Shown: one piece after another, positions 631 to 16,774 of the stretch
Layout: each line of letters starts with the position of its first letter
Position numbering within the stretch: the first letter of the stretch is position 1
DNA from: Myxococcota bacterium
GTDB lineage: Bacteria > Myxococcota_A > UBA796 > CAJQPC01
Assembly: GCA_036012755.1 (NCBI GenBank)
Contig: DASCPX010000189.1
Span: 1 to 64,000, forward strand
Length of the DNA: 64,000 nt
Reading direction: 5' to 3'
Notes under the pieces: model-generated
Seen by the model: the letters and a program-made list of their open reading frames with translations, nothing else
Told to the model about the DNA's origin: nothing
The model's database searches: none
Translations under genes and position numbers: made by a program

Positions 631-706
631 TGTTCCGGCCTCTTGTCCGCCTGGATCTACCCCCATTTGCTCGACCACGAGGGCCGCGCCGCTATAGAAT
701 CCGCCC

Positions 707-985
707 ATGGCCAACGAGTTCCTCCCGGCTTCCGTCCTCATGACCCTCGGACTGACCGGGTGTGGTCTCTTCGGGCCCTGTCTCAGCATCAACAACCCCA
801 ACGCCTGCTTGAGCATCGCCATCGACACCGACTGCGACACCTCCGATCCAGAGGACACCTCCTGCCCCCAGGACACCGCCTCGGGAGAGGCCGCGGAGCA
901 GGCTGAGACGCGCTCCGAGATCACGCGCAAGGTGATCGAGCACGGCGTGTTGCCCGCGGACGTAGCGGACCGGCTCCAGCCCTGA
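707..985 (+). CDS. Small Cys-rich lipoprotein-like protein with xCLS motifs; candidate RiPP precursor A
   Basis: LGLTGC lipobox, PCLSI and ACLSI motifs, C-terminal GVLPADV. Paralogous to the next ORF and in an operon with radical SAM genes. Confidence 0.8.
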   Translation: MANEFLPASVLMTLGLTGCGLFGPCLSINNPNACLSIAIDTDCDTSDPEDTSCPQDTASGEAAEQAETRSEITRKVIEHGVLPADVADRLQP

Positions 986-1011
986 AGAAGGGTCTCCCGC
1001 CCTCGGTCATC

Positions 1012-1368
1012 ATGGCTCTGGGCCTCTCTGGCTGTGGCCTCTTCGGCCCCTGCCTGGAGCCCACGCCCTGCCTCTCCGTCGTCGATCCCTGCTCCCAGGA
1101 CCCGAGACCGCCGGACTGCGGCGAGCCCGTGCCGATCGGACCCTGTCTCGAGCACCACATGCCGCCGGCGGTGTGCCTGAGCGTCGTGCCTCCGACCGTG
1201 TGCCTGAAGATCGACTACCCGGAGCCCTGCCTGAGCATCGCTCCGGAGCCAGACCCTCCAAAGGACGACTGCGACCCCGCCACGGACGACGACTGCCCGA
1301 GCAGGGACGAGGCCAGACAGAAGGCCAAGGAGGCACTCCCAGAGGACGTCAAGGAGAAGGTCGAGTAG
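1012..1368 (+). CDS. Cys/Pro-rich lipoprotein-like protein with six xCLx motifs; candidate RiPP precursor B (true start possibly CTG 982)
   Basis: LGLSGC lipobox; PCLE, PCLS, PCLE, VCLS, VCLK, PCLS; tail LPEDV. Stop is directly followed by the radical SAM start at 1369. Confidence 0.8.
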   Translation: MALGLSGCGLFGPCLEPTPCLSVVDPCSQDPRPPDCGEPVPIGPCLEHHMPPAVCLSVVPPTVCLKIDYPEPCLSIAPEPDPPKDDCDPATDDDCPSRDEARQKAKEALPEDVKEKVE

Positions 1369-2397
1369 GTGGCCGTCGCCACGGAGAGCGCCCGCCTGGA
1401 CTTCGAGCTCAGCACCGGCTGCGACCACCGCTGCGCCCACTGCTACAACATCTGGAACGCCGAAGAGGGTGATCCCCAGCACGGCTACCGTCGCCGTGGC
1501 CCGCCGAGCACATCCGCGCTGAAAGAGACGATGAGCCGCGCCGTGGAGCAGAGCGGAGCGGTGCACCTCACCCTGACCGGCGGCGAGCCACTCCTGCGCA
1601 AGGACGCCCTCGACATCATCGACCACGCCCGGCAGCTCGTACCCAGCGTCTCGCTCATCTCCAACGGCAGTCACATCGACGAAGCCACGGCCAGGGCGCT
1701 GCGCGGGGTTCGCAGCGTCCAGCTGACCCTGCTCGCTGGAGACCGGGACCTTCACGACCGGCTCAAGGGCGCCGTCTGCTTCGACGACACGACGCGGGCT
1801 GCGATCGCGCTGCGTGACGCTGGTGTTCCCTCCCAGTGCTGCTTCGTGGCGCTGTCCGACAACCGCGGCGAGCTGCGGTCCGTGCTGGAGCTCTGCGTCG
1901 CCCTCGACATGGGAAGCCTGAGCTACAACCGCATGAGCCCCGCAGGGGGTGCCATCCACCACTCGCAGCGCCTGATGCCGGATCCTCGGCAGCTCGAAGA
2001 GGACCTCGAGGTGGCGGATCGACTGGGCCGGGCATGGAACATCGCGGTCGGGACGGCGATGCCCATCCCCCCGTGTCTCGTCCGCATCGAGCGGTACAGC
2101 TGGATCCGCTTTGGCTTCTGCAGCGTCGGATCGAGCTCCCCCAGCCTGGTCGTCGACCCCTGGGGAGATGTCCGCAGCTGCAACCTGTCGGGCCACGTGC
2201 TGGGCAACGTGCTCGAGGACGACTGGTCCGAGATCGTGGCTAATCCCTACCTCGCTGAGTTCCGGATGGCCCTGCCGAAAGTCTGTAGTGGATGTGCCTA
2301 CGAGAAGAGCTGCCAGGGAGGGTGCAAGGAGAGCGGCTTCGCCAGCTTCGGCGCCCTGTCGGAGCTGGAGCCCCTGGTGCGTATGGTCCTGGAATGA
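1369..2397 (+). CDS. Radical SAM protein with SPASM domain (PqqE/peptide-maturase-like)
   Basis: CDHRCAHC (CxxxCxxC), LTGGEPLLR, and SPASM cysteines FCSVG...GDVRSC...CSGCAYEKSCQGGC. Confidence 0.92.
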   Translation: MAVATESARLDFELSTGCDHRCAHCYNIWNAEEGDPQHGYRRRGPPSTSALKETMSRAVEQSGAVHLTLTGGEPLLRKDALDIIDHARQLVPSVSLISNGSHIDEATARALRGVRSVQLTLLAGDRDLHDRLKGAVCFDDTTRAAIALRDAGVPSQCCFVALSDNRGELRSVLELCVALDMGSLSYNRMSPAGGAIHHSQRLMPDPRQLEEDLEVADRLGRAWNIAVGTAMPIPPCLVRIERYSWIRFGFCSVGSSSPSLVVDPWGDVRSCNLSGHVLGNVLEDDWSEIVANPYLAEFRMALPKVCSGCAYEKSCQGGCKESGFASFGALSELEPLVRMVLE

Positions 2398-5195
2398 AGG
2401 CGCCGGCGGTCCTGCTCATCAGCCCGGGCATCCTGCGCTGGGTGGACGGCGACTTCGGCCTGCCACACCTCGTCGCGCTGGGCGGCTACCTTCGCGAGCA
2501 CACGGGCGTCAGGGTGGAGATCATCGACCTCAACTACGAGGGCGGTGATCACCAGAGCCTGCTGAAGACACTGAACGATCTCAGCCCCTTGCTGTGTATC
2601 GGTGTGAGCGTCTACTCCAGCTTCGACTTCACGCGGGTCAAGGCGCTCGCGCGCTTCTTGAAGAAGGCCATGCCAGGCGTTCCGCTGATCGCAGGTGGGT
2701 ACCACGCCTCGGCCCTTCCAGGGGACCTCGAGCCCTTCGACAGCGTGGTGCAGGGCGAGGGTGAGCGCCCGATGACGCGCGTCGTCGAGACCCTGCTCGG
2801 TGGCGGCGTCGTCGAGCCTCTGTATCCACACGATCTCGTAGAGGATCTCGACACGCTCCCGCCCTATGCCTGGGACCTGCTCGATCGCTACTGGCCGAAG
2901 GCCCTGCAGCTGGGACGCAAGCTGCAGATCTACTTCTCCCGTGGCTGTCCCTACCACTGCACCTTCTGCATGGAGCGGGCCAAGTCCGGCTACTCCTGGC
3001 GGGCCTACAGCGTCGAGCGTGCGCTGGATGAGCTGCGTCGATTGGGCACCTTCACGCCGCTGGAGCGCTGGGTCGTCAACGTGGCGGATCCGCTCTTCGG
3101 CTTCCAGCGCTCCTGGCGGCGGGAGCTGCTCGATGGCATCGCCACAGAGGGCCTGCTTCCACGGCAGTTCTGGACGCTCACCCGCAGCGACGACCTCGAA
3201 GCAGAGGACGTGAAGCTCCTGGCAGAGGCGCGCTTCAGCATCGGCATCGGGCTCGAGACCGGCAGCCCGCGCATGCACGGGGTGATGCAGAAGGGCAACA
3301 CGCCGGAGCGCTACCTCTCTGCCATCCGCCGGCTCGCTCGACTTAGCCAGGACAATGGGCTGACCTGGGCCACCAACATCATCGTCGGTCACCCCGGTGA
3401 GACCCCCGAGTCCCTGCGAGAGACCCGGGACTTCGTCGAGGAGCTCTTCCTCGGCCAGCCGACCACGCGGGGCTGGCTCAGCGTGGACCCTTTCCGCCTC
3501 TACCCGGGGTCACAGGTCCACGAGCAGATGCAGCTCTGGGAGGAAGAGCACGGCAGCCGCTTCCACCAGCCCCGGTGGTGGCGGAGCTGGTACGACGGTC
3601 CCTTCCGAGCCGAGCACCTCGACCCAAGCCGGGAGCTGGACTTCGAGGCGCGCGTTCGCTGGATGGGCGAGGCCTACCCGCCGCTGTTGGAGTCCATCCG
3701 CCAGCGCTTCGTGAGTAGCGGACGAGAGGTCGACCGGATCTACCGGATGGCCATGGACGAGCAGGTGGCGAACCTCTCGCCCGAGCGCCTACAGAGCGTG
3801 CTCCAAAAGGCCCGGAGCGTGCCGAGGGACGCCGGGGTGCGCATCGAGGTCCCAATCGGACTGGCTCTGAAGGACCCCTGGGTGCGCCGCAGGGAGGCCG
3901 CGGTTCGCCGGCTCCTGGACCGAGGCGTGCTGCGGACCGCCGAGCTCGTCGAGGCCCTGTTGCAGGAGAAGCCGGAGCACTGGATGCCCCCCGAGCAGGC
4001 CCTGCGTGTCCTCGCCGGCGAGGCGACGGAGCCCCACGCCGAGGGTGCCCTGCCCGAGTCCCTCGGGATCGACGCCATCGCCCTGGGGCTGGAGGCCCTG
4101 GGTCCGCTGCGCGGCCAGCGGGTGGCGGATCTGGGTGCGGCGAGCGGCTACCTCGCAGCGCTGCTGTGCCGGCTGGTCGGCGAGGGCGAGGTGCTGGCTC
4201 TCTCCGGGCTCGGCGACCTCCAGGCCATGCTCCCCCGGGCCAGGGTCGTCGAGCCCCATGCCCTTCCGCTGCCGGAAGAGGAGCTCGACGCCGCCTGGCT
4301 CGGAGCGGCCATGCCGCGGTTGCCGGCGGAGCTGAGAGAGCGGGTCGATGGAGGGATGCGCCTGGTCACCTTGCTGGGCCCGCGCTTTCGTGCCCAGGAC
4401 CTCGTCCTGCTCACGGCCCATGGCGAGCAGCGCCTCGGTCGCGTCAAGGCGCCCGTGATGGGCGGGCGCTGGGGCTGGGTGCCGCTCCCGGCGGCCGGTG
4501 TGCCCGCGGACCTGCGCTTCGTGCGCTGGCCGGGGCCCGCGCAGGCCTACCACGTGCTGGCCCACCTCGATCTGGGGGCGGACGCCGCGGGGCTCTACGA
4601 CCCCGAGCTGCCCTCGAGGCCCTGGGTCGAGCCCCTGCGTCGCGCATACGCAGAGGCCGACAGACCCCTCGTGCTGCAAGGCAAGGCACTGAGGCACCGG
4701 ACCGTGCCTGCACTGCTGGCGGACCTGCGGAGCTCCGGAGACGGGCTCCAGGTGCTCTTCGCCGATGCCATCGAGTCCGAGGGGCAGGGCACCTGGCCAG
4801 AGCTGGAAGAGCACGCCGCGTTGTCCCTCGAGCTCCGACACCTGGCCGGGCTCCTGTGGCAGCACCGCCCCCCGCCCCTGCGCCTGCTGGACTGCCCCTC
4901 CCTGGGTCGCCACGGCCGCGCTGGCTGGCTGGATGGGGAGCGCATCGTCGCCGTCAACGCCGCAGAGGATCCGGAACACGTGCTGCAGCAGGTCCTGCAC
5001 GAGTGGGTCCACACGCTCACCGACTCGCTGGTCGAGGTGGACCACGCCAGGCGAGACACCCGCCTCGGCAGCGAGGGCTTCCAGGTCCACGCGGAGCTGG
5101 AGAGGGTCGCCCTGTTGGCGACCGAGGCCATGCTGAGCGAGCGGGCGCCGGAGCACCTGCCAGGCTTCCGGCGGTGGCTGGAGCGAGTCCTGTGA
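2394..5195 (+). CDS. Cobalamin-dependent radical SAM protein fused to a PIMT-like methyltransferase domain and a C-terminal HExxH domain
   Basis: ATGA overlap at 2394. N-terminal B12-binding fold, SRGCPYHCTFC, DLGAASGYLAALLCRLVG (Pcm-like motif I), VLHEWVH near 4998-5012. Confidence 0.88.
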   Translation: MKAPAVLLISPGILRWVDGDFGLPHLVALGGYLREHTGVRVEIIDLNYEGGDHQSLLKTLNDLSPLLCIGVSVYSSFDFTRVKALARFLKKAMPGVPLIAGGYHASALPGDLEPFDSVVQGEGERPMTRVVETLLGGGVVEPLYPHDLVEDLDTLPPYAWDLLDRYWPKALQLGRKLQIYFSRGCPYHCTFCMERAKSGYSWRAYSVERALDELRRLGTFTPLERWVVNVADPLFGFQRSWRRELLDGIATEGLLPRQFWTLTRSDDLEAEDVKLLAEARFSIGIGLETGSPRMHGVMQKGNTPERYLSAIRRLARLSQDNGLTWATNIIVGHPGETPESLRETRDFVEELFLGQPTTRGWLSVDPFRLYPGSQVHEQMQLWEEEHGSRFHQPRWWRSWYDGPFRAEHLDPSRELDFEARVRWMGEAYPPLLESIRQRFVSSGREVDRIYRMAMDEQVANLSPERLQSVLQKARSVPRDAGVRIEVPIGLALKDPWVRRREAAVRRLLDRGVLRTAELVEALLQEKPEHWMPPEQALRVLAGEATEPHAEGALPESLGIDAIALGLEALGPLRGQRVADLGAASGYLAALLCRLVGEGEVLALSGLGDLQAMLPRARVVEPHALPLPEEELDAAWLGAAMPRLPAELRERVDGGMRLVTLLGPRFRAQDLVLLTAHGEQRLGRVKAPVMGGRWGWVPLPAAGVPADLRFVRWPGPAQAYHVLAHLDLGADAAGLYDPELPSRPWVEPLRRAYAEADRPLVLQGKALRHRTVPALLADLRSSGDGLQVLFADAIESEGQGTWPELEEHAALSLELRHLAGLLWQHRPPPLRLLDCPSLGRHGRAGWLDGERIVAVNAAEDPEHVLQQVLHEWVHTLTDSLVEVDHARRDTRLGSEGFQVHAELERVALLATEAMLSERAPEHLPGFRRWLERVL

Positions 5196-5329: not shown

Positions 5330-5480
5330 TTGATGGTCGGGCTGCTGCTGGTCTTGGCTTGTGATGGTCCCGTGGAGACGACCTCTCCCTCCGTGTCGCC
5401 GGGCCCGGAGGACGAGCTGCACGACTCCGCAGACGACTGTTCGGATCCGTCCAGTCCGTGTGTCGAGGCGACACCAGGCC
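5330..5480 (+). pseudogene. N-terminal fragment of a lipoprotein
   Basis: MVGLLLVLAC lipobox followed by a Ser/Pro/Asp linker. The frame then runs into the antisense strand of the convergent truncated oxidoreductase. Confidence 0.5.
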
Positions 5481-6029
5481 GAAGATGCCGACGTTGTCGA
5501 CCCAGTCGATGTCGTCCATGCCGGGGATCGGGAAGACCCGGGCACGGGCCCCCGTCGCGATCAGGCTGCGCTTGAAGCGCAGAGTGGTCTCTCCGACGCG
5601 GACTGTGTCGGATCCTGTGAAGCGCGCCTCGCCCTGGAACACGTCCACGCCGGCGTCCCTGAGCCGGGCGGCGCTGTCGTGGTGTGCGATGTCCGCCCGG
5701 ATGCGACGCATGCGCTCCATCGCCGTGCCGAAGTCCACCTCGACCCCATCCACGCTGACACCCATGACTCCACCATGCTGCAGCGCGTGCACGGCGTGGG
5801 CAGCGGCCAACACGCCCTTGCTCGGGATGCACCCGAAGTTCAGGCAGTCGCCGCCGAGCATGTGCTTCTCGACCAGCGCCACTGTCGCGCCCAGGCCAGC
5901 GCTGCCCATCGCGGCCACCAGCCCTGCGGTTCCGCCTCCGAGCACCACCAGGTCGTAGCGCTCGGCGGGAGTCGGGATCGGCCAGTCCCTTGGTTGGACG
6001 TGGGACAGGAGCCGATCCTGGTGGCTCAA
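5474..6029 (-). pseudogene. Truncated class I pyridine nucleotide-disulfide oxidoreductase (mercuric reductase/dihydrolipoamide dehydrogenase-like)
   Basis: TTG 6029 overlaps the arsM stop. YDLVVLGGGTAG, GGDCLNFGCIPSK and IATGA are present; similarity stops at NVGIFGL before the NAD(P)H-binding GxGxxG. Confidence 0.8.
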
Positions 6030-7003
6030 CAGCAACCCCCTCCCGCATAGTGCCAGGTGCTCCCTGTCACCCTCAGCAGCGGGTTGTCGAGCGCCTCGAA
6101 GGCGGCCGCGGTCTTGTCGCAGATCGCGAGCGGGACCTCCGGGATCAGCACGTGGCCGTCGCCGTCGTCGAAGCTGCCCTGGCCGAGCCAGAAGGCCACG
6201 CGACCAGTGAAGACGCAGGCGCCGTCGGCGGGCACGGGGCCCTTGATCGCGACGACCTCGATGGACTCGAGCAGGATGTCCTCGTCGATCCCGTAGGTCT
6301 CGGCGTCCAGCAGCCGGTAGGGCATCCGGCGGCGGATCTCGATGGTGCCGAAGCCGGCCTCGACGAGGTCCTCGATGTAGCGCTCGTAGCTCGGCGCCCC
6401 GGACAGGCAGCGGGCGCGGAGCTCCTCGTCGTCGGCGAGCTTGTCCGGCATCTCGATCGGGGTGATCGGATCGGACAGCACCAGCCGACCGCCGGGCCTC
6501 AACACCCTGTGCATCTCGGAGAGCGCTCGCAGCCGATGCTCGTCGGTGAAGATGTTGAACAGGCAGTTCTGTGCTGCGAGGTCGACGCTGTCGTCGGCGA
6601 CGGGGAGCTCCAGCGCGTCGCCGTCGCGGACGTCCACGAAGTCTGTGGCGAACCAGTCGTTCGTCTCGGCGGCGATCCGGAAGTTCGCCCCTGCCTTGTC
6701 TCGCATCTGGGCGACGGGATCTATGGCGATGACGCCCCCTTCTCGCCGCGCGAACCAGGCGAACTGTAGGGCTTCGAGGCCTCCTCCGACTCCCACGTAG
6801 AGGATGGTCATGTCCCCGTGCAGGTCCTGCAAGTGCACGGTCGTGCCGCAGCCGTAGTTCATCTCCAGCATCTCGACTGGGACCTCGAGGCCGGGGAGGG
6901 CCCACACCGGGCTGGTGGTGCAGCAGAGCTGCGCGTCGGGGCTCGCGGCCGCCTCGGCGTAGACGTCGTGGGTGGTGCGAAGGTAGCTCTCTCGTTGTTC
7001 CAT
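6026..7003 (-). CDS. arsM: Arsenite methyltransferase, arsenosugar-cluster type
   Basis: LCCTTSP, MNYGCGTTVH, YVGVGGG, AQNCLFNI, CLSGA, C-terminal YAGGGCC; adjacent to arsS. Confidence 0.85.
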   Translation of the reverse strand: MEQRESYLRTTHDVYAEAAASPDAQLCCTTSPVWALPGLEVPVEMLEMNYGCGTTVHLQDLHGDMTILYVGVGGGLEALQFAWFARREGGVIAIDPVAQMRDKAGANFRIAAETNDWFATDFVDVRDGDALELPVADDSVDLAAQNCLFNIFTDEHRLRALSEMHRVLRPGGRLVLSDPITPIEMPDKLADDEELRARCLSGAPSYERYIEDLVEAGFGTIEIRRRMPYRLLDAETYGIDEDILLESIEVVAIKGPVPADGACVFTGRVAFWLGQGSFDDGDGHVLIPEVPLAICDKTAAAFEALDNPLLRVTGSTWHYAGGGCC

Positions 7004-7011
7004 GGGTCCCT

Positions 7012-7968
7012 TCAGGTCAGCGCACCACCGCAGGACGAGCCGGCGCCGGCGGTGCAGCCGAAGCAGTGTGTTCCGACTACGACGGGGCGTCCCTGCCAGT
7101 CGTCGATGTCGTCGATGTCGAAGATGGTCGCCTGCGGTCCAGGGACCGGCAGATCGAGCATCTGGTTGAAGTCGCAGTCATAGAGGGCGCCGTCCCAGCC
7201 GACGCTCAACAGGTGACGACACATCAGCCCGTCCACCGTGCCCGGGTTGAACGCGCCGGCGAGGAGCTCCATGTACTCATCGTGTCGACCCTGTCGGGCC
7301 AGGTCGGAGCCAAAGCGGGCGATCGGCATGTTCGCAATAGCCAGCAGGTTGCTGAACTCGACGCCGAAGTCTGTGCGTAGTCGCTGCTTGTAGTCCCTCT
7401 CGAGCCCCTCCTGAGCCGGAGGGAGGAAGGCGCCGCCGGGGTTGTAGACCAGGGTCAGGCTGCGGCTCGTGCCGTAGCCGAGTCGATTCAGGAGCCTCAG
7501 CGCCTCGACGCTCTTGTCGAAGACCCCGCGTCCGCGCTGCTTGTCGACGTTGTCGGCCGTGTAGCAGGGCAGGCTGGCGACGACCTCGACGTCGTGCTCG
7601 GCGAGGAACTCGGCGGTTCCTTCCTGCCTGGGCTCCCACAGCACCGTGAGGTTGCAGCGGTCGATGACGCGCCGGCCCAGGGCGCGAGCGCCCGCGACGA
7701 GGCGGCGGAACCCGGGGTTGAGCTCCGGTGCGCCGCCGGTGATGTCGAGGAGCTCCAGCTCGGGGCTCTTGCCCAGGAGCTGCAGCACGGCCTCGATCGT
7801 CGCTCCCTCCATCATCTCGGTGCGGGTCGGACCGGCGTCGACGTGGCAGTGACGACAGGCCTGGTTGCACCGCTTGCCCATGTTCACCTGCAGCCAGCTC
7901 GGGCGAGCGCGCCGCAGGGGGCCGACACCATGGACTCTCAGGGTTCGGCCGAAGTCGTGGGTCGTCAT
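7012..7968 (-). CDS. arsS: Arsenosugar-biosynthesis-type radical SAM protein (rSAM/Cys-rich)
   Basis: LQVNMGKRCNQACRHCHVDAGP, DITGGAPELNP, ASLPCY, YDCDFNQ, HCFGCTAGAGSSCGG. Start taken as ATG 7968. Confidence 0.88.
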   Translation of the reverse strand: MTTHDFGRTLRVHGVGPLRRARPSWLQVNMGKRCNQACRHCHVDAGPTRTEMMEGATIEAVLQLLGKSPELELLDITGGAPELNPGFRRLVAGARALGRRVIDRCNLTVLWEPRQEGTAEFLAEHDVEVVASLPCYTADNVDKQRGRGVFDKSVEALRLLNRLGYGTSRSLTLVYNPGGAFLPPAQEGLERDYKQRLRTDFGVEFSNLLAIANMPIARFGSDLARQGRHDEYMELLAGAFNPGTVDGLMCRHLLSVGWDGALYDCDFNQMLDLPVPGPQATIFDIDDIDDWQGRPVVVGTHCFGCTAGAGSSCGGALT

Positions 7969-8014
7969 GACCACCCAGATGCTCTGTGGGCCCCGGCGAT
8001 GCAAAGAGAAGACC

Positions 8015-8116
8015 CTGGACGTGGTCGTCGACCAGGAGGGCGTCGTCCGCTTCGTCGACACCCGCTACGACCCGGACACCATCGAGGCGCTGATCGACGA
8101 GCTGCTCTCCGAGTGA
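8015..8116 (+). pseudogene. Orphan C-terminal fragment resembling a thioredoxin/peroxiredoxin-fold protein
   Basis: LDVVVDQEGVVRFVDTRYDPDTIEALIDELLSE* with coding-like codon usage and no plausible N-terminus. Confidence 0.45.
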
Positions 8117-14272: not shown

Positions 14273-15793
<1,521 letters not shown>

Positions 15794-15816
15794 CTCTGGC
15801 TCCGGAGTCGATAGGC

Positions 15817-15838
15817 TCAATCCGTTTAGCCGGATGGA
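15817..15838. promoter_or_regulatory. Palindrome ATCCG-N6-CGGAT, candidate SahR-type operator
   Basis: TCAATCCGTTTAGCCGGATGGA between divergent ahcY and the ArsR-methyltransferase regulator. Confidence 0.65.
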
Positions 15839-15868
15839 CAAATGGATTGCAAGCGCTTAGGAAAAAAC

Positions 15869-16774
15869 ATGACGGTCTTCGAGCTCATGAGCGCCCTCTC
15901 CGAGCCCGTGCGTGTGCGCATCCTGGCCCTCGTGGAGGCAGAGGAGCTCGGCGTGAAGGAGCTCCAGGAGACGCTTCAGCTGCCGCAGTCGACGATCTCG
16001 CGCCACCTCAAGGTGCTGGTGGATCGGGGCCTCGTGCAGCGCCGATCCTCTGGCACCCAGAGCCTGGTGCGCCTCGCCACGCTGGACGCTTCGACCGACG
16101 CGATCTGGCAGTCGGTGCGGGCTCAGGTCGGCGAGACCCGGGAGGCGGACCTGGCGCGGATGAAGACCGTTCTGTCCTTGTCTCGGGCGGACGGCGAGGA
16201 CTTCTTCGGCCGCCACGCTTCCCGCTGGGATGCCCTGCGCGAGGACCTCTTCGGCCACGACTTCGTGCTCCCGACGCTCCTGTCGCTCCTTCCCCGCGAG
16301 CTCGTCGTGGCCGACCTCGGCTGCGGCACGGGTGCGATGCTCGCTTGTCTCGGCTCGCTGCGGGTCATCGGCGTGGACCGCGAACCGGCGATGCTGGATG
16401 AGGCCCGCAAGCGGGTCCCCGAGGCGGATCTGCGCTGCGGACGCCTGGATGATCTGCCGATCGAGGAGGACGAGCTCGACGCGGCGCTGTTGGTGCTGGT
16501 CCTCCACCACGTCGAGGACCTCTCGGGGGTCTTCTCAGAGCTCGCTCGGGTGCTCCGAGGGGGTGGTCGTGCCATCGTCCTGGACATGGTCGAGCACGAC
16601 CGGGCCGAGTTCCGCCGCACGATGGGCCACAAGCACCTGGGTTTGTCCGCGTCCGGGCTCGGCGCGCTCGCGGCGGGCCATGGCTTGGAGATGGTGGGCC
16701 AGTGCGAGCTCGCGCGCGCCGAGGGCGCCCTGGGCCCCGCTCTCCAGCTGCTCGTCTTCGAGAAGAAGGGATAG
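15869..16774 (+). CDS. ArsR-family regulator fused to a SAM-binding methyltransferase domain (SahR-like)
   Basis: ALSEPVRVRIL...QSTISRHLKVL HTH; VADLGCGTG; divergent from ahcY. Confidence 0.88.
   Translation: MTVFELMSALSEPVRVRILALVEAEELGVKELQETLQLPQSTISRHLKVLVDRGLVQRRSSGTQSLVRLATLDASTDAIWQSVRAQVGETREADLARMKTVLSLSRADGEDFFGRHASRWDALREDLFGHDFVLPTLLSLLPRELVVADLGCGTGAMLACLGSLRVIGVDREPAMLDEARKRVPEADLRCGRLDDLPIEEDELDAALLVLVLHHVEDLSGVFSELARVLRGGGRAIVLDMVEHDRAEFRRTMGHKHLGLSASGLGALAAGHGLEMVGQCELARAEGALGPALQLLVFEKKG

Follow-up and report, generated by a model that had tools for sequence, protein, structure and literature searches.

The locus considered here raises a straightforward question: what is done, and by which enzymes, to two small cysteine-containing repeat proteins that are encoded directly upstream of two radical S-adenosylmethionine (SAM) enzymes? 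The locus occupies positions 707-5195 of a stretch of 64,000 nucleotides (‘the window’) from a Myxococcota bacterium (assembly GCA_036012755.1, contig DASCPX010000189.1, positions 1 to 64,000), and consists of four co-directional open reading frames (ORFs) that abut or overlap one another. An earlier note on this DNA had proposed that the two small ORFs are precursors of a peptide made on the ribosome and modified after translation (RiPP) or of a modified lipoprotein, served by one radical SAM (rSAM) enzyme with a SPASM domain and by a second, B12-dependent rSAM enzyme. The answer that we favour, and regard as reasonably probable, is a system devoted to the maturation of small repeat proteins destined for export, in which the precursors are most likely modified by the adjacent enzymes before export. 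The genes and domains in question are as follows (aa, amino acids; PCMT, the methyltransferase fold discussed below):

707-985, plus strand: precursor A, 92 aa
982-1368, plus strand: precursor B, about 128 aa if started at CTG 982, 118 aa from ATG 1012
1369-2397, plus strand: gene 3, rSAM/SPASM enzyme, 342 aa, GTG start
2394-5195, plus strand: gene 4, 933 aa from ATG 2394 (ORF open from 2292)
2394-3848, plus strand: B12-binding rSAM module, the N-terminal part of gene 4
2469-2783, plus strand: B12-binding domain of that module, residues 26-130 (PF02310, score 47.2 against a cutoff of 32.1)
2928-3437, plus strand: radical SAM core of gene 4, residues 179-348 (PF04055, 73.2 against 29.5)
3849-4493, plus strand: PCMT-fold domain of gene 4, residues ~486-700
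4491-5195, plus strand: HExxH domain of gene 4, C-terminal, ~235-250 aa
4998-5012, plus strand: HEWVH motif within the HExxH domain

The first step in answering this question is to establish that the genes themselves are real. The tight coupling of four co-directional genes described in the earlier note is borne out by the ORF coordinates, and both of the junctions that it singled out can be seen in the sequence: the stop codon of precursor B (TAG 1366-1368) directly abuts the GTG start of gene 3 at 1369, and the string ggaATGAagg places the stop of gene 3 and the start of gene 4 within a single ATGA overlap at 2394-2397. The translations likewise confirm the two and six copies of an xCLx motif that had been counted in the two small ORFs. 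In all four ORFs the GC content at third codon positions (GC3) is 0.86-0.89, the level to be expected of genuine genes in DNA of 66-70% GC. The repeat architecture is also a rarity in its own genome: the six frames of the 6.7-Mb assembly contain 57,900 open segments of 60 aa or more, and precursor B is the only one among them with three or more copies of [PVA]CL[SEKD]. Finally, positions 600-1154 are matched with 0 differences by contigs of run X6, which is not among the runs marked as possible sources of the DNA. The original observation is thereby confirmed as real.

The evidence on conservation comes from 27 related loci, which were fetched from Myxococcota-type metagenome-assembled genomes (MAGs) and in which gene order, conservation and co-occurrence could be read directly. 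In 25 of 28 sources (the 27 loci plus the window), small proteins with GPCL repeats and an LPxDV-type C-terminal tail are encoded next to the orthologue of the rSAM/SPASM enzyme; a first search pattern recovered them in 20 loci and in the window, and a second pattern in L001, L003, L005 and L007. The three loci in which no precursor was found (L017, L022 and L023) all have cut flanks. The module includes one to three such proteins, and those of L005 and L007 lie downstream of the enzymes, so that two gene orders are represented overall. The earlier note had held that its proposal should be given up if homologous rSAM genes generally lacked xCL-repeat neighbours, and had suggested that the neighbours be inspected for the repeats, the tail and a lipobox; the first two features recur in these 25 sources, but the lipobox proved less constant, as described below.

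The enzymes are conserved along with the precursors. Orthologues of gene 3 are 54-70% identical to it, and the B12-rSAM part follows the rSAM/SPASM gene in 25 of the 27 loci (60-68% identity), the exceptions being L004 and L022, the latter a contig of 2.5 kb. A PCMT-like part could be recognized in 24 of the 27. The HExxH domain was found in 22 of the 27 and in the window, fused to gene 4 in 11 loci and the window and encoded by the next ORF in 11 (ten loci in which gene 4 is short, plus L004); of the five loci without it, L010, L017, L020 and L026 are cut at their downstream end and the fifth is the short contig L022. The arrangement in L004 is unusual, with the rSAM/SPASM gene directly followed by a free-standing PCMT-like gene and an HExxH gene and no B12-rSAM part. 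No other gene is common to the 27 loci: once the enzyme genes and their shadow frames are set apart, the next most frequent gene cluster, of metallo-beta-lactamase fold, is present in seven. This cluster and DUF389 (three loci) were considered as core members and set aside as too infrequent. No conserved transporter or carrier gene lies near the module in these loci, nor are the genes that flank it in the window (encoding GST-like, ArsM, ArsS, LNS2-like and GntR-type proteins) matched in any of the 27.

The same coherence is seen at the scale of the phylum, for which 401 evenly drawn genomes were searched with a threshold of E <=1e-60 for the rSAM/SPASM enzyme. A match was found in 34 of them, of which 28 are of orthologue grade (at least 52% identity); seven genomes hold distant matches (36-40% identity), with one genome, G327, holding both kinds. 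A profile of the HExxH domain matches 30 of the 401 genomes, namely 27 of the 28 orthologue carriers versus three of the 373 others; the sole carrier without it, G071, has its rSAM gene at the start of a contig. The HExxH domain was found in none of the six genomes that have the distant paralogue only, and the rSAM/SPASM enzyme was not found in 11 other searched genomes of the window’s own family. The module is therefore best described as patchy across families yet internally coherent. The view that it is conserved and specific is supported by the precursors in 25 of 28 sources and by the B12-rSAM gene in 25 of 27 loci.

What, then, is the likely substrate? Alignment of the related precursors shows directly which of their parts are conserved. 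They begin with a conserved [KR]..LPxSxLxALGL segment followed by a cysteine, continue with two to ten copies of a unit [VIT]-G-P-C-L-[SD] (most commonly spaced by 13 residues and separated by acidic or proline-rich stretches), and end with an amphipathic tail of the form ..[VIL]L.rG.LPxDVAxRL (the GVLPxDVAxRL type). Among 34 precursors, leucine directly follows 142 of 206 cysteines; the number of cysteines that lack a following leucine is somewhat too high, because a few of the precursor sequences were begun too early and take in translated upstream DNA. Around these 142 Cys-Leu motifs, proline stands at position -1 in 110, glycine at -2 in 101, and valine, threonine or isoleucine at -3 in 101; position +2 is serine in 54 and aspartate in 45, and an aspartate or glutamate is found at -6 in 86, within cores that are 10.7% aspartate overall. 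Of the 34 precursors, 12 have a strict lipobox ([LVI][ASTVI][GAS]C) and 21 match a relaxed form of it, these counts being matches to a pattern and not the output of a signal-peptide predictor. The lipoprotein reading of the earlier note fits the two precursors of the window, both of which have the strict pattern, and is less well supported for the family as a whole.

A subset of these relatives departs from the common plan. In L012, L019, L021, L024 and L025 (and partly in L018), the GPCL repeats are preceded by a tandem of hydrophobic segments, both of which end in a cysteine (for example ...SVLTAC... followed by ...VVAGGSQTAC). A cleaved signal followed by a re-entrant segment, or two membrane spans, are possible topologies of such an arrangement. 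All of the loci with a double hydrophobic segment have the split, stand-alone form of the HExxH gene.

The two precursors of the window conform to the family plan. Precursor A (GC3 0.88) has a signal-like N-terminus that ends in the lipobox LTGC, an acidic, cysteine-containing linker, two motif copies (GPCLS and ACLS) and the tail VIEHGVLPADVADRLQP; its Atlas model, with a predicted local distance difference test score (pLDDT) of 0.38, is that of a disordered chain. ATG 707 is its only possible start, because an in-frame TAG lies at 695-697. Precursor B has the lipobox LSGC, a similar acidic, cysteine-containing linker, six motif copies (PCLE, PCLS, PCLE, VCLS, VCLK and PCLS) and the tail EALPEDVKEKVE. 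Its start is less obvious. Ahead of ATG 1012 the reading frame remains open and encodes KKGLPPSVI, a stretch that can be aligned with FLPASVL in precursor A and with its counterpart in the relatives; a protein begun at ATG 1012 would be devoid of this signal segment. Since the frame that is homologous to the signal is open and contains no ATG, GTG or TTG between the preceding stop codon and 1012, precursor B probably starts at CTG 982, which overlaps the stop of precursor A as cCTGA. Neither precursor was assigned to any family in Pfam and NCBIfam scans, and the Protein Atlas returned nothing usable for precursor A.

Both window precursors also contain further cysteines in acidic surroundings, at 773-883 in A (DCD and SCPQD) and at 1093-1305 in B (PCS, DCG, DCD and DCPSRD). 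These resemble the DxxC(P/D) units of the thrombospondin-type-3 repeats in a protein of locus L028, described next, and are missing from most of the relatives’ precursors.

If the repeats are the site of modification, the tail may be the means by which the modifying enzyme finds them, a suggestion that arises from the more distant paralogue of gene 3. Five loci encode an rSAM/SPASM paralogue that is 36-40% identical to gene 3 and that is accompanied by neither the B12-rSAM, PCMT-like and HExxH parts nor GPCL precursors. In three of the five (L028, L029 and L030), a cysteine-containing ORF of secreted type, with a tail of the kind found on the precursors, nevertheless lies just upstream of the paralogue. 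That of L028 (4819-5967, plus strand, 382 aa), which adjoins a 38%-identical paralogue, has a lipobox and, in addition, another hydrophobic segment, is full of Cys/Asp repeats of thrombospondin-type-3-like kind, gives NCBIfam matches of MtsC/Omp28 type, and carries a C-terminal tail of GVLPxEVA type (...ARGVLPAEVAAFARMA, ...LIARGVLPAEVAAFARMA). The upstream protein of L029 has RLPPDVV near its C-terminal end, and that of L030 ends in ...QGVLPPTMSA, ...QRQGVLPPTMSA. Because the rSAM/SPASM enzyme is the only one common to both types of system, the tail is assigned to it, and we infer from these three of five loci that it is a docking element of the rSAM/SPASM enzyme. The L028 protein further suggests that rSAM substrates tagged with such a tail may form a larger family.

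The identity of the enzyme encoded by gene 3 is clear at the level of its superfamily. PF04055 covers residues 13-168 with a score of 72.5 (cutoff 29.5), and the C-terminal part is recognized by the SPASM models TIGR04085 (36.1 against 27) and PF13186 (27 against 21.5). Across 26 aligned sequences, the CX3CX2C motif (C18, C22 and C25) is invariant, as are seven SPASM cysteines (C236, C251, C271, C306, C309, C315 and C319) and two further ones, C137 and C158. Gene 3 is thus assigned to the SPASM subgroup of the radical SAM superfamily, with the binding of two auxiliary [4Fe-4S] clusters predicted from the conserved SPASM cysteines. It has no N-terminal RiPP recognition element (RRE), the rSAM domain beginning at residue 13 of 342, and no further conserved small gene (such as a separate PqqD) was found in the 27 loci. 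A search returned 546 proteins at E <=1e-10; identities among the 120 best of them are 58-70%, and these proteins, where a source is named, come from Myxococcota or Nannocystaceae, or are described generically as radical SAM or PqqE proteins. The named SPASM maturases were each considered and rejected, all of them scoring far under the NCBIfam cutoffs: PqqE (79 against 381), GeoRSP (80.8 against 400), MftC (61.4 against 265), AlbA (42.5 against 850), StsB (77.3 against 625), anSME (39 against 349) and the ScmE/F type (ScmF 70 against 400).

Gene 4 is a more elaborate protein than the ‘B12-rSAM fusion’ that had been described: the B12-binding and rSAM domains are indeed present, but two additional domains, one PCMT-like and one with an HExxH motif, had been overlooked. 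Its N-terminal part is a class B (B12-binding) radical SAM enzyme, in which cobalamin binding is predicted and methyl transfer may occur. Every NCBIfam equivalog model falls far under its cutoff, including TIGR03975 (39.2 against 281.85) and TIGR04364 (20.5 against 320).

The central domain of gene 4 has the fold of a PCMT. It is matched by PF01135 just above the cutoff (21.1 against 20.3) and by the sequences of PCMTs in the PDB at E ~1e-5, and its AlphaFold2 (AF2) model (pLDDT 88.7) finds a PCMT as its top Foldseek match (E 8.7e-11, target TM 0.78, ~215 aligned columns), the 14 best listed rows (ranks 1-16, with gaps) all being PCMTs or a PCMT-like complex I subunit. The whole fold and the C-terminal motifs are retained. 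In class I methyltransferases, a GxGxG loop and an acidic residue after strand beta-2 are required for the binding of SAM. Here the loop is degenerate (GAASGY in the window and xxAxxGY in most of 22 aligned relatives, versus GsGsGY or GtGcGY in PCMTs), and alignment to PDB entries 1r18 and 2yxe shows that the acidic residue has been lost (VLALS in the window versus VVSIE in 2yxe). Because of these two changes, the domain is probably non-catalytic, and it may instead be a substrate-binding module.

The first helix of this domain (window 3889-3960; AVRRLLDRGVLRTAELVEALL, RLLDRGVLRT...) resembles the tails of the precursors (window 917-982, and relatives, for example VLDRGVLPDDVAALL in L014), and a hidden Markov model of the tail matches the helix in most fusion proteins, with only 5-9 bits. 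This likeness could reflect chance, mimicry or common origin, and is noted as a curiosity, not as evidence.

The C-terminal domain of gene 4 bears on the statement in the earlier note that no classical leader peptidase is adjacent, which passed over an invariant, zincin-like HExxH domain in gene 4 or in the gene that follows it. In 15 aligned sequences, eight residues are invariant (Q188, H191, E192, H195, T198, D199, H221 and E225), forming the motifs Q..HExxH..TD and H..LE. No Pfam, NCBIfam or PDB entry matches the domain by sequence, and for 14 of the 15 members no NCBIfam family appears even at E <=10, the remaining member giving one unrelated match. The AF2 model has a pLDDT of 88.3, and its best neighbours in VIA are all HExxH metallohydrolases (YbeY, Z 6.7; BlaR1, 6.4; ERAP1, 6.3; and Wss1, selecase and Ste24); the HExxH domain of ChlB (PDB 8s5f), which belongs to the alpha-ketoglutarate (aKG)-dependent HExxH enzymes, is found with Z 4.2 and a root-mean-square deviation of 4.9 over 144 residues, and is ranked second by Foldseek (E 0.26). 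In the Protein Atlas, the domain gave only sub-threshold leads to zinc peptidases, with scores of 0.85-0.88. Judged from the model, the domain is likely to be zincin-like, and it is a candidate for either a peptidase that removes the tail or an aKG/Fe oxygenase. A profile search of 1.84 billion representatives returned 230 clusters at E <=1e-3 and 194 at <=1e-10; the 150 clusters listed are mostly free-standing proteins of ~250 aa, and include five fused forms of at least 700 aa.

Armed with these assignments, we propose the following mechanism, in which the pairing of substrates with enzymes, the docking on the tail, all of the chemistry, the export and the final function are matters of inference. 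The substrate would be a chain composed of an N-terminal Sec-type signal, a disordered core of GPCL repeats and a C-terminal amphipathic tail. In the cytoplasm, the RRE-less rSAM/SPASM enzyme would dock on the tail and modify each repeat by radical chemistry at its invariant Cys-Leu dyad; our best guess for the nature of this modification is a thioether between the sulfur of the cysteine and a carbon atom in a neighbouring residue, of the type known from sactipeptides, ranthipeptides, QhpC and CrpA, although we put the presence of some kind of thioether in the product at somewhat less than an even chance. The B12-rSAM module would then add a second modification that is specific for GPCL, most likely a C-methylation, while the fused PCMT fold, with its degenerate SAM loop, would hold the substrate and not methylate it. 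The HExxH domain would remove the tail or, alternatively, hydroxylate aspartate. Export would proceed via Sec, with lipid anchoring at the envelope in the window organism, where the modified cysteine sites may bind metal.

Several peptide-tailoring systems provide a frame for this proposal. Repeated cores acted upon by rSAM enzymes are known from PapB and freyrasin (with its CX3D repeats), AlbA and CteB, and the QhpD/QhpC pair provides Cys-Asp/Glu thioethers. The present system resembles these ranthipeptides, sactipeptides and QhpD in that an rSAM/SPASM enzyme would act on several cysteines per chain in acidic surroundings. It differs in that its motif, G-P-C-L-[SD], has no fixed spacing to an acceptor, in that an N-terminal leader with an RRE is missing, in that the precursors are probably exported by a signal peptide, and in that its AlbA and StsB scores fall under the cutoffs. 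Among B12-dependent rSAM enzymes, PoyC and the TIGR03975 family are peptide C-methyltransferases, and gene 4 resembles them in having a B12-binding domain and a radical SAM core beside a putative peptide substrate; the FxLD system (TIGR04364) is similar in placing a PCMT-fold domain in a peptide-tailoring context. The scores for TIGR03975 and TIGR04364 are, however, far under their cutoffs, and the SAM loop of the window’s PCMT domain is degenerate.

The closest precedent for chemistry on a protein is CrpC of Methanococcus voltae, a SPASM rSAM enzyme that installs ranthionine crosslinks on the cysteine-rich protein CrpA (PMC13692751). The two systems share an rSAM/SPASM enzyme with three [4Fe-4S] sites (predicted in the window) beside a cysteine-rich substrate that is larger than a typical RiPP; the modification, in the window a proposed one, is placed on a protein and not on a short peptide. 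They differ in that CrpC carries an RRE and makes contact with N-terminal portions of its substrate, whereas the window enzyme is RRE-less and a C-terminal tail is its likely handle; furthermore, no sequence-family link exists (all NCBIfam equivalogs being under cutoff), and the window adds the B12-rSAM, PCMT-like and HExxH components and a signal peptide. The logic of export is closest to that of the bufferins, which are MNIO-modified, cysteine-containing RiPP metallophores with Sec signals and no need of a dedicated exporter (PMC11626156). Both have long, cysteine-containing precursors with an N-terminal Sec signal, cytoplasmic modification and export by the general pathway (all three as proposed here for the window), and both lack a dedicated exporter or protease gene; a metal-binding role at the envelope is plausible, although for the window it is a guess. 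On the other hand, bufferins rely upon MNIO/DUF692 and DUF2063 proteins where the window has two rSAM enzymes, and they have neither a repeat architecture nor a C-terminal tail. Finally, the rSAM-fused aKG-HExxH enzymes have a zincin-like fold and hydroxylate aspartate and histidine, and a relative removes a C-terminal peptide (PMC12636437). ChlB and PflC/PosC have in common with gene 4 the fusion of a radical SAM enzyme to an HExxH domain (of zincin-like fold, which in gene 4 is likely) in a cluster for peptide tailoring; the differences are that no sequence profile matches and the structural similarity reaches only Z 4.2, that the partner in the window is a B12-rSAM and PCMT-like protein, and that the window’s HExxH family, with its 230 representative clusters, is mostly free-standing at ~250 aa.

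The most serious rival to the cysteine-centred chemistry is one that is centred on aspartate. The HExxH domain would then be an aKG/Fe(II) oxygenase that beta-hydroxylates aspartate or oxidatively cuts the tail, the PCMT domain would be an active O-methyltransferase (acting through an aspartate methyl ester, succinimide or isoaspartate), and the rSAM enzymes would perform neither thioether formation nor methylation. The abundance of aspartate in the cores and the acidic residue at -6 in 86 of the 142 motifs fit this explanation, as do the intact PCMT fold with its C-terminal motifs, a weak match (E 2e-4) to the model of the FxLD-system RiPP methyltransferase, and the appearance of the ChlB domain among the structural matches; the rSAM-fused enzymes of that zincin-like type hydroxylate Asp and His, and a relative cuts off a C-terminal tetrapeptide (PMC12636437). 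Yet the element of the core that is invariant is Cys-Leu and not aspartate, neither the GxGxG loop nor the acidic residue after beta-2 is conserved in the PCMT domain, and the fold search ranks zincins that are hydrolases above it (Z 6.3-6.7); the HExxH domain, moreover, has no NCBIfam match at E <=10, a result that would include the aKG-HExxH family if NCBIfam has a model of it. We consider this explanation unlikely. Two others appear to us quite improbable. One would make the locus a factory for a cofactor or small molecule in the manner of pyrroloquinoline quinone (PQQ) or mycofactocin, in which the two rSAM enzymes would modify the Cys-Leu units and the HExxH peptidase would cut them out, each precursor yielding several redox-active or metal-binding molecules. 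PqqE and the mycofactocin maturase, with 79 and 61 bits, are among the nearest rSAM/SPASM profiles, the core consists of repeats in which a dipeptide is all that is invariant, a domain of peptidase type accompanies the enzymes throughout, and the enzymes remain 54-70% identical while the spacers drift freely; but the two profile scores are far under cutoffs of 381 and 265, the conserved signal and lipobox segments argue for export of the whole chain and not for cytoplasmic excision, the conservation of G-P before the cysteine and of the residue after the leucine fits recognition within a polymer, and no conserved transporter or carrier gene lies nearby. The other would have the small proteins be ordinary, unmodified envelope lipoproteins, with the enzymes acting on a lipid, a sugar or a cofactor and the linkage reflecting a common process. 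It would sit well with the lack of an RRE and with the occurrence of lipid and sugar enzymes among B12-domain rSAM families, the matches here including HpnJ, HpnR, a ladderane-lipid enzyme and AprD4, but poorly with the very tight linkage of the genes (stops and starts abutting or overlapping in the window), the adjacency of precursors and enzymes in 25 of 28 sources and in two gene orders, the disordered, repeat-based precursors that are typical of RiPP-like substrates, and a tail that follows the rSAM/SPASM enzyme into a paralogous system with a quite different core.

The dedicated maturation system that we favour is itself open to a number of objections. On the side of the substrate, the signal segment of precursor B has no canonical start codon, precursor A has no basic residue ahead of its hydrophobic segment (MANEF...), strict lipoboxes are confined to the minority of precursors given above, and six loci have a second hydrophobic segment of unexplained topology. 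Besides the Cys-Leu dyad no single residue is conserved, which leaves the proposed crosslink without a fixed acceptor, and a Cys-Asp link could not be universal, because some adjacent repeats of precursor B have no acidic residue between them. The argument from the tail is thin, drawing as it does on three of five paralogue loci; no tailed, cysteine-rich neighbour was found in the other two, L031 and L032. On the side of the enzymes, many rSAM proteins with a B12 domain are not methylases, and the best NCBIfam matches of this one are an uncharacterised family and the AprD4 dehydratase; the B12 step is in any case not universal, given the composition of L004. The fold call for the HExxH domain is weak, with a best Z of 6.7 that is under the tool’s caution line of 8 and a best Foldseek E of 0.2. 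Lastly, every carrier of the module is a MAG.

How new would such a system be? The claim of the earlier note that this is not a characterised class has held up: no Pfam or NCBIfam family covers the system beyond generic domains, and no description of it was found in the literature searched, although the rSAM-RiPP atlas of Clark and Seyedsayamdost, which lay outside that literature, could list the family. Nor was any described fusion of B12-rSAM, PCMT-like and HExxH domains found in the same literature. The substrate family, the combination of a C-terminal tail logic with an export signal, the three-part accessory protein and the HExxH family all look new. The underlying principle is not, since rSAM-tailored peptides, Sec-exported RiPPs and protein-level thioethers have precedents. 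A bolder synthesis, which we find possible but doubtful, would define a new class of ribosomal envelope proteins with a maturation logic that is the inverse of that of classical RiPPs: the N-terminus would serve for Sec or lipoprotein targeting, and an RRE-less rSAM/SPASM enzyme would be brought in by a ‘follower’ helix (GVLPxDVA) at the C-terminus. The tail code would be common to at least two rSAM/SPASM subfamilies (with GPCL versus thrombospondin-type-3-like cores), and the three-part accessory protein, composed of the B12-rSAM module, a methyltransferase fold reused to clamp the peptide and a new HExxH family, would complete the modification of Cys-Leu on each repeat. The product would be a polyvalent, lipid-anchored, metal- or redox-active polymer at the surface.

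If the proposed maturation system is correct, it would supply a new family of rSAM substrates, in which a countable G-P-C-L motif of up to ten copies offers a handle on two uncharacterised rSAM enzymes. The C-terminal tail would reconcile tailoring in the cytoplasm with the presence of an export signal at the N-terminus, and could be used for mining further systems. The locus would also provide a PCMT fold in which SAM binding has apparently been lost and an HExxH family of ~230 clusters for which Pfam has no model, and would point to a possible envelope role, for example in the handling of metals, in Myxococcota of marine, freshwater and sludge habitats, which are widespread although uncultured.

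A few features of the surrounding DNA complete the description. The window begins at the end of the contig, so that 706 bases of upstream sequence are available in its own genome. Within them lies one promoter-like site:

671-700, plus strand: TCGACC-18 nt-TAGAAT, ending 7 bases before ATG 707, a weak candidate

One such site was found versus 0.3 expected in shuffled sequence, and it is a match to a consensus, not functional evidence.

Downstream, an arsenosugar biosynthesis pair (6026-8061, minus strand) converges on the end of gene 4, comprising ArsM (6026-7003, minus strand; 488 bits against a cutoff of 400) and the radical SAM protein ArsS (7012-8061, minus strand; 429 bits against 300); in none of the 27 related loci does this pair adjoin the module. 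The interval that separates ArsM from the 3' end of gene 4 contains a fragment of a pyridine nucleotide-disulfide oxidoreductase (5460-5999, minus strand; PF07992, E 1.8e-23, covering positions 1-120 of a 291-position profile), the frame of which continues without family similarity in a 1038-aa shadow ORF; it may be a truncated or frameshifted gene. Further along, a regulator of ArsR/SmtB type fused to a methyltransferase domain (15842-16774, plus strand) adjoins an adenosylhomocysteinase gene (14273-15841, minus strand), and the part of the window that holds ArsM, ArsS, the ArsR fusion and the adenosylhomocysteinase is rich in SAM-dependent and arsenic-related genes.

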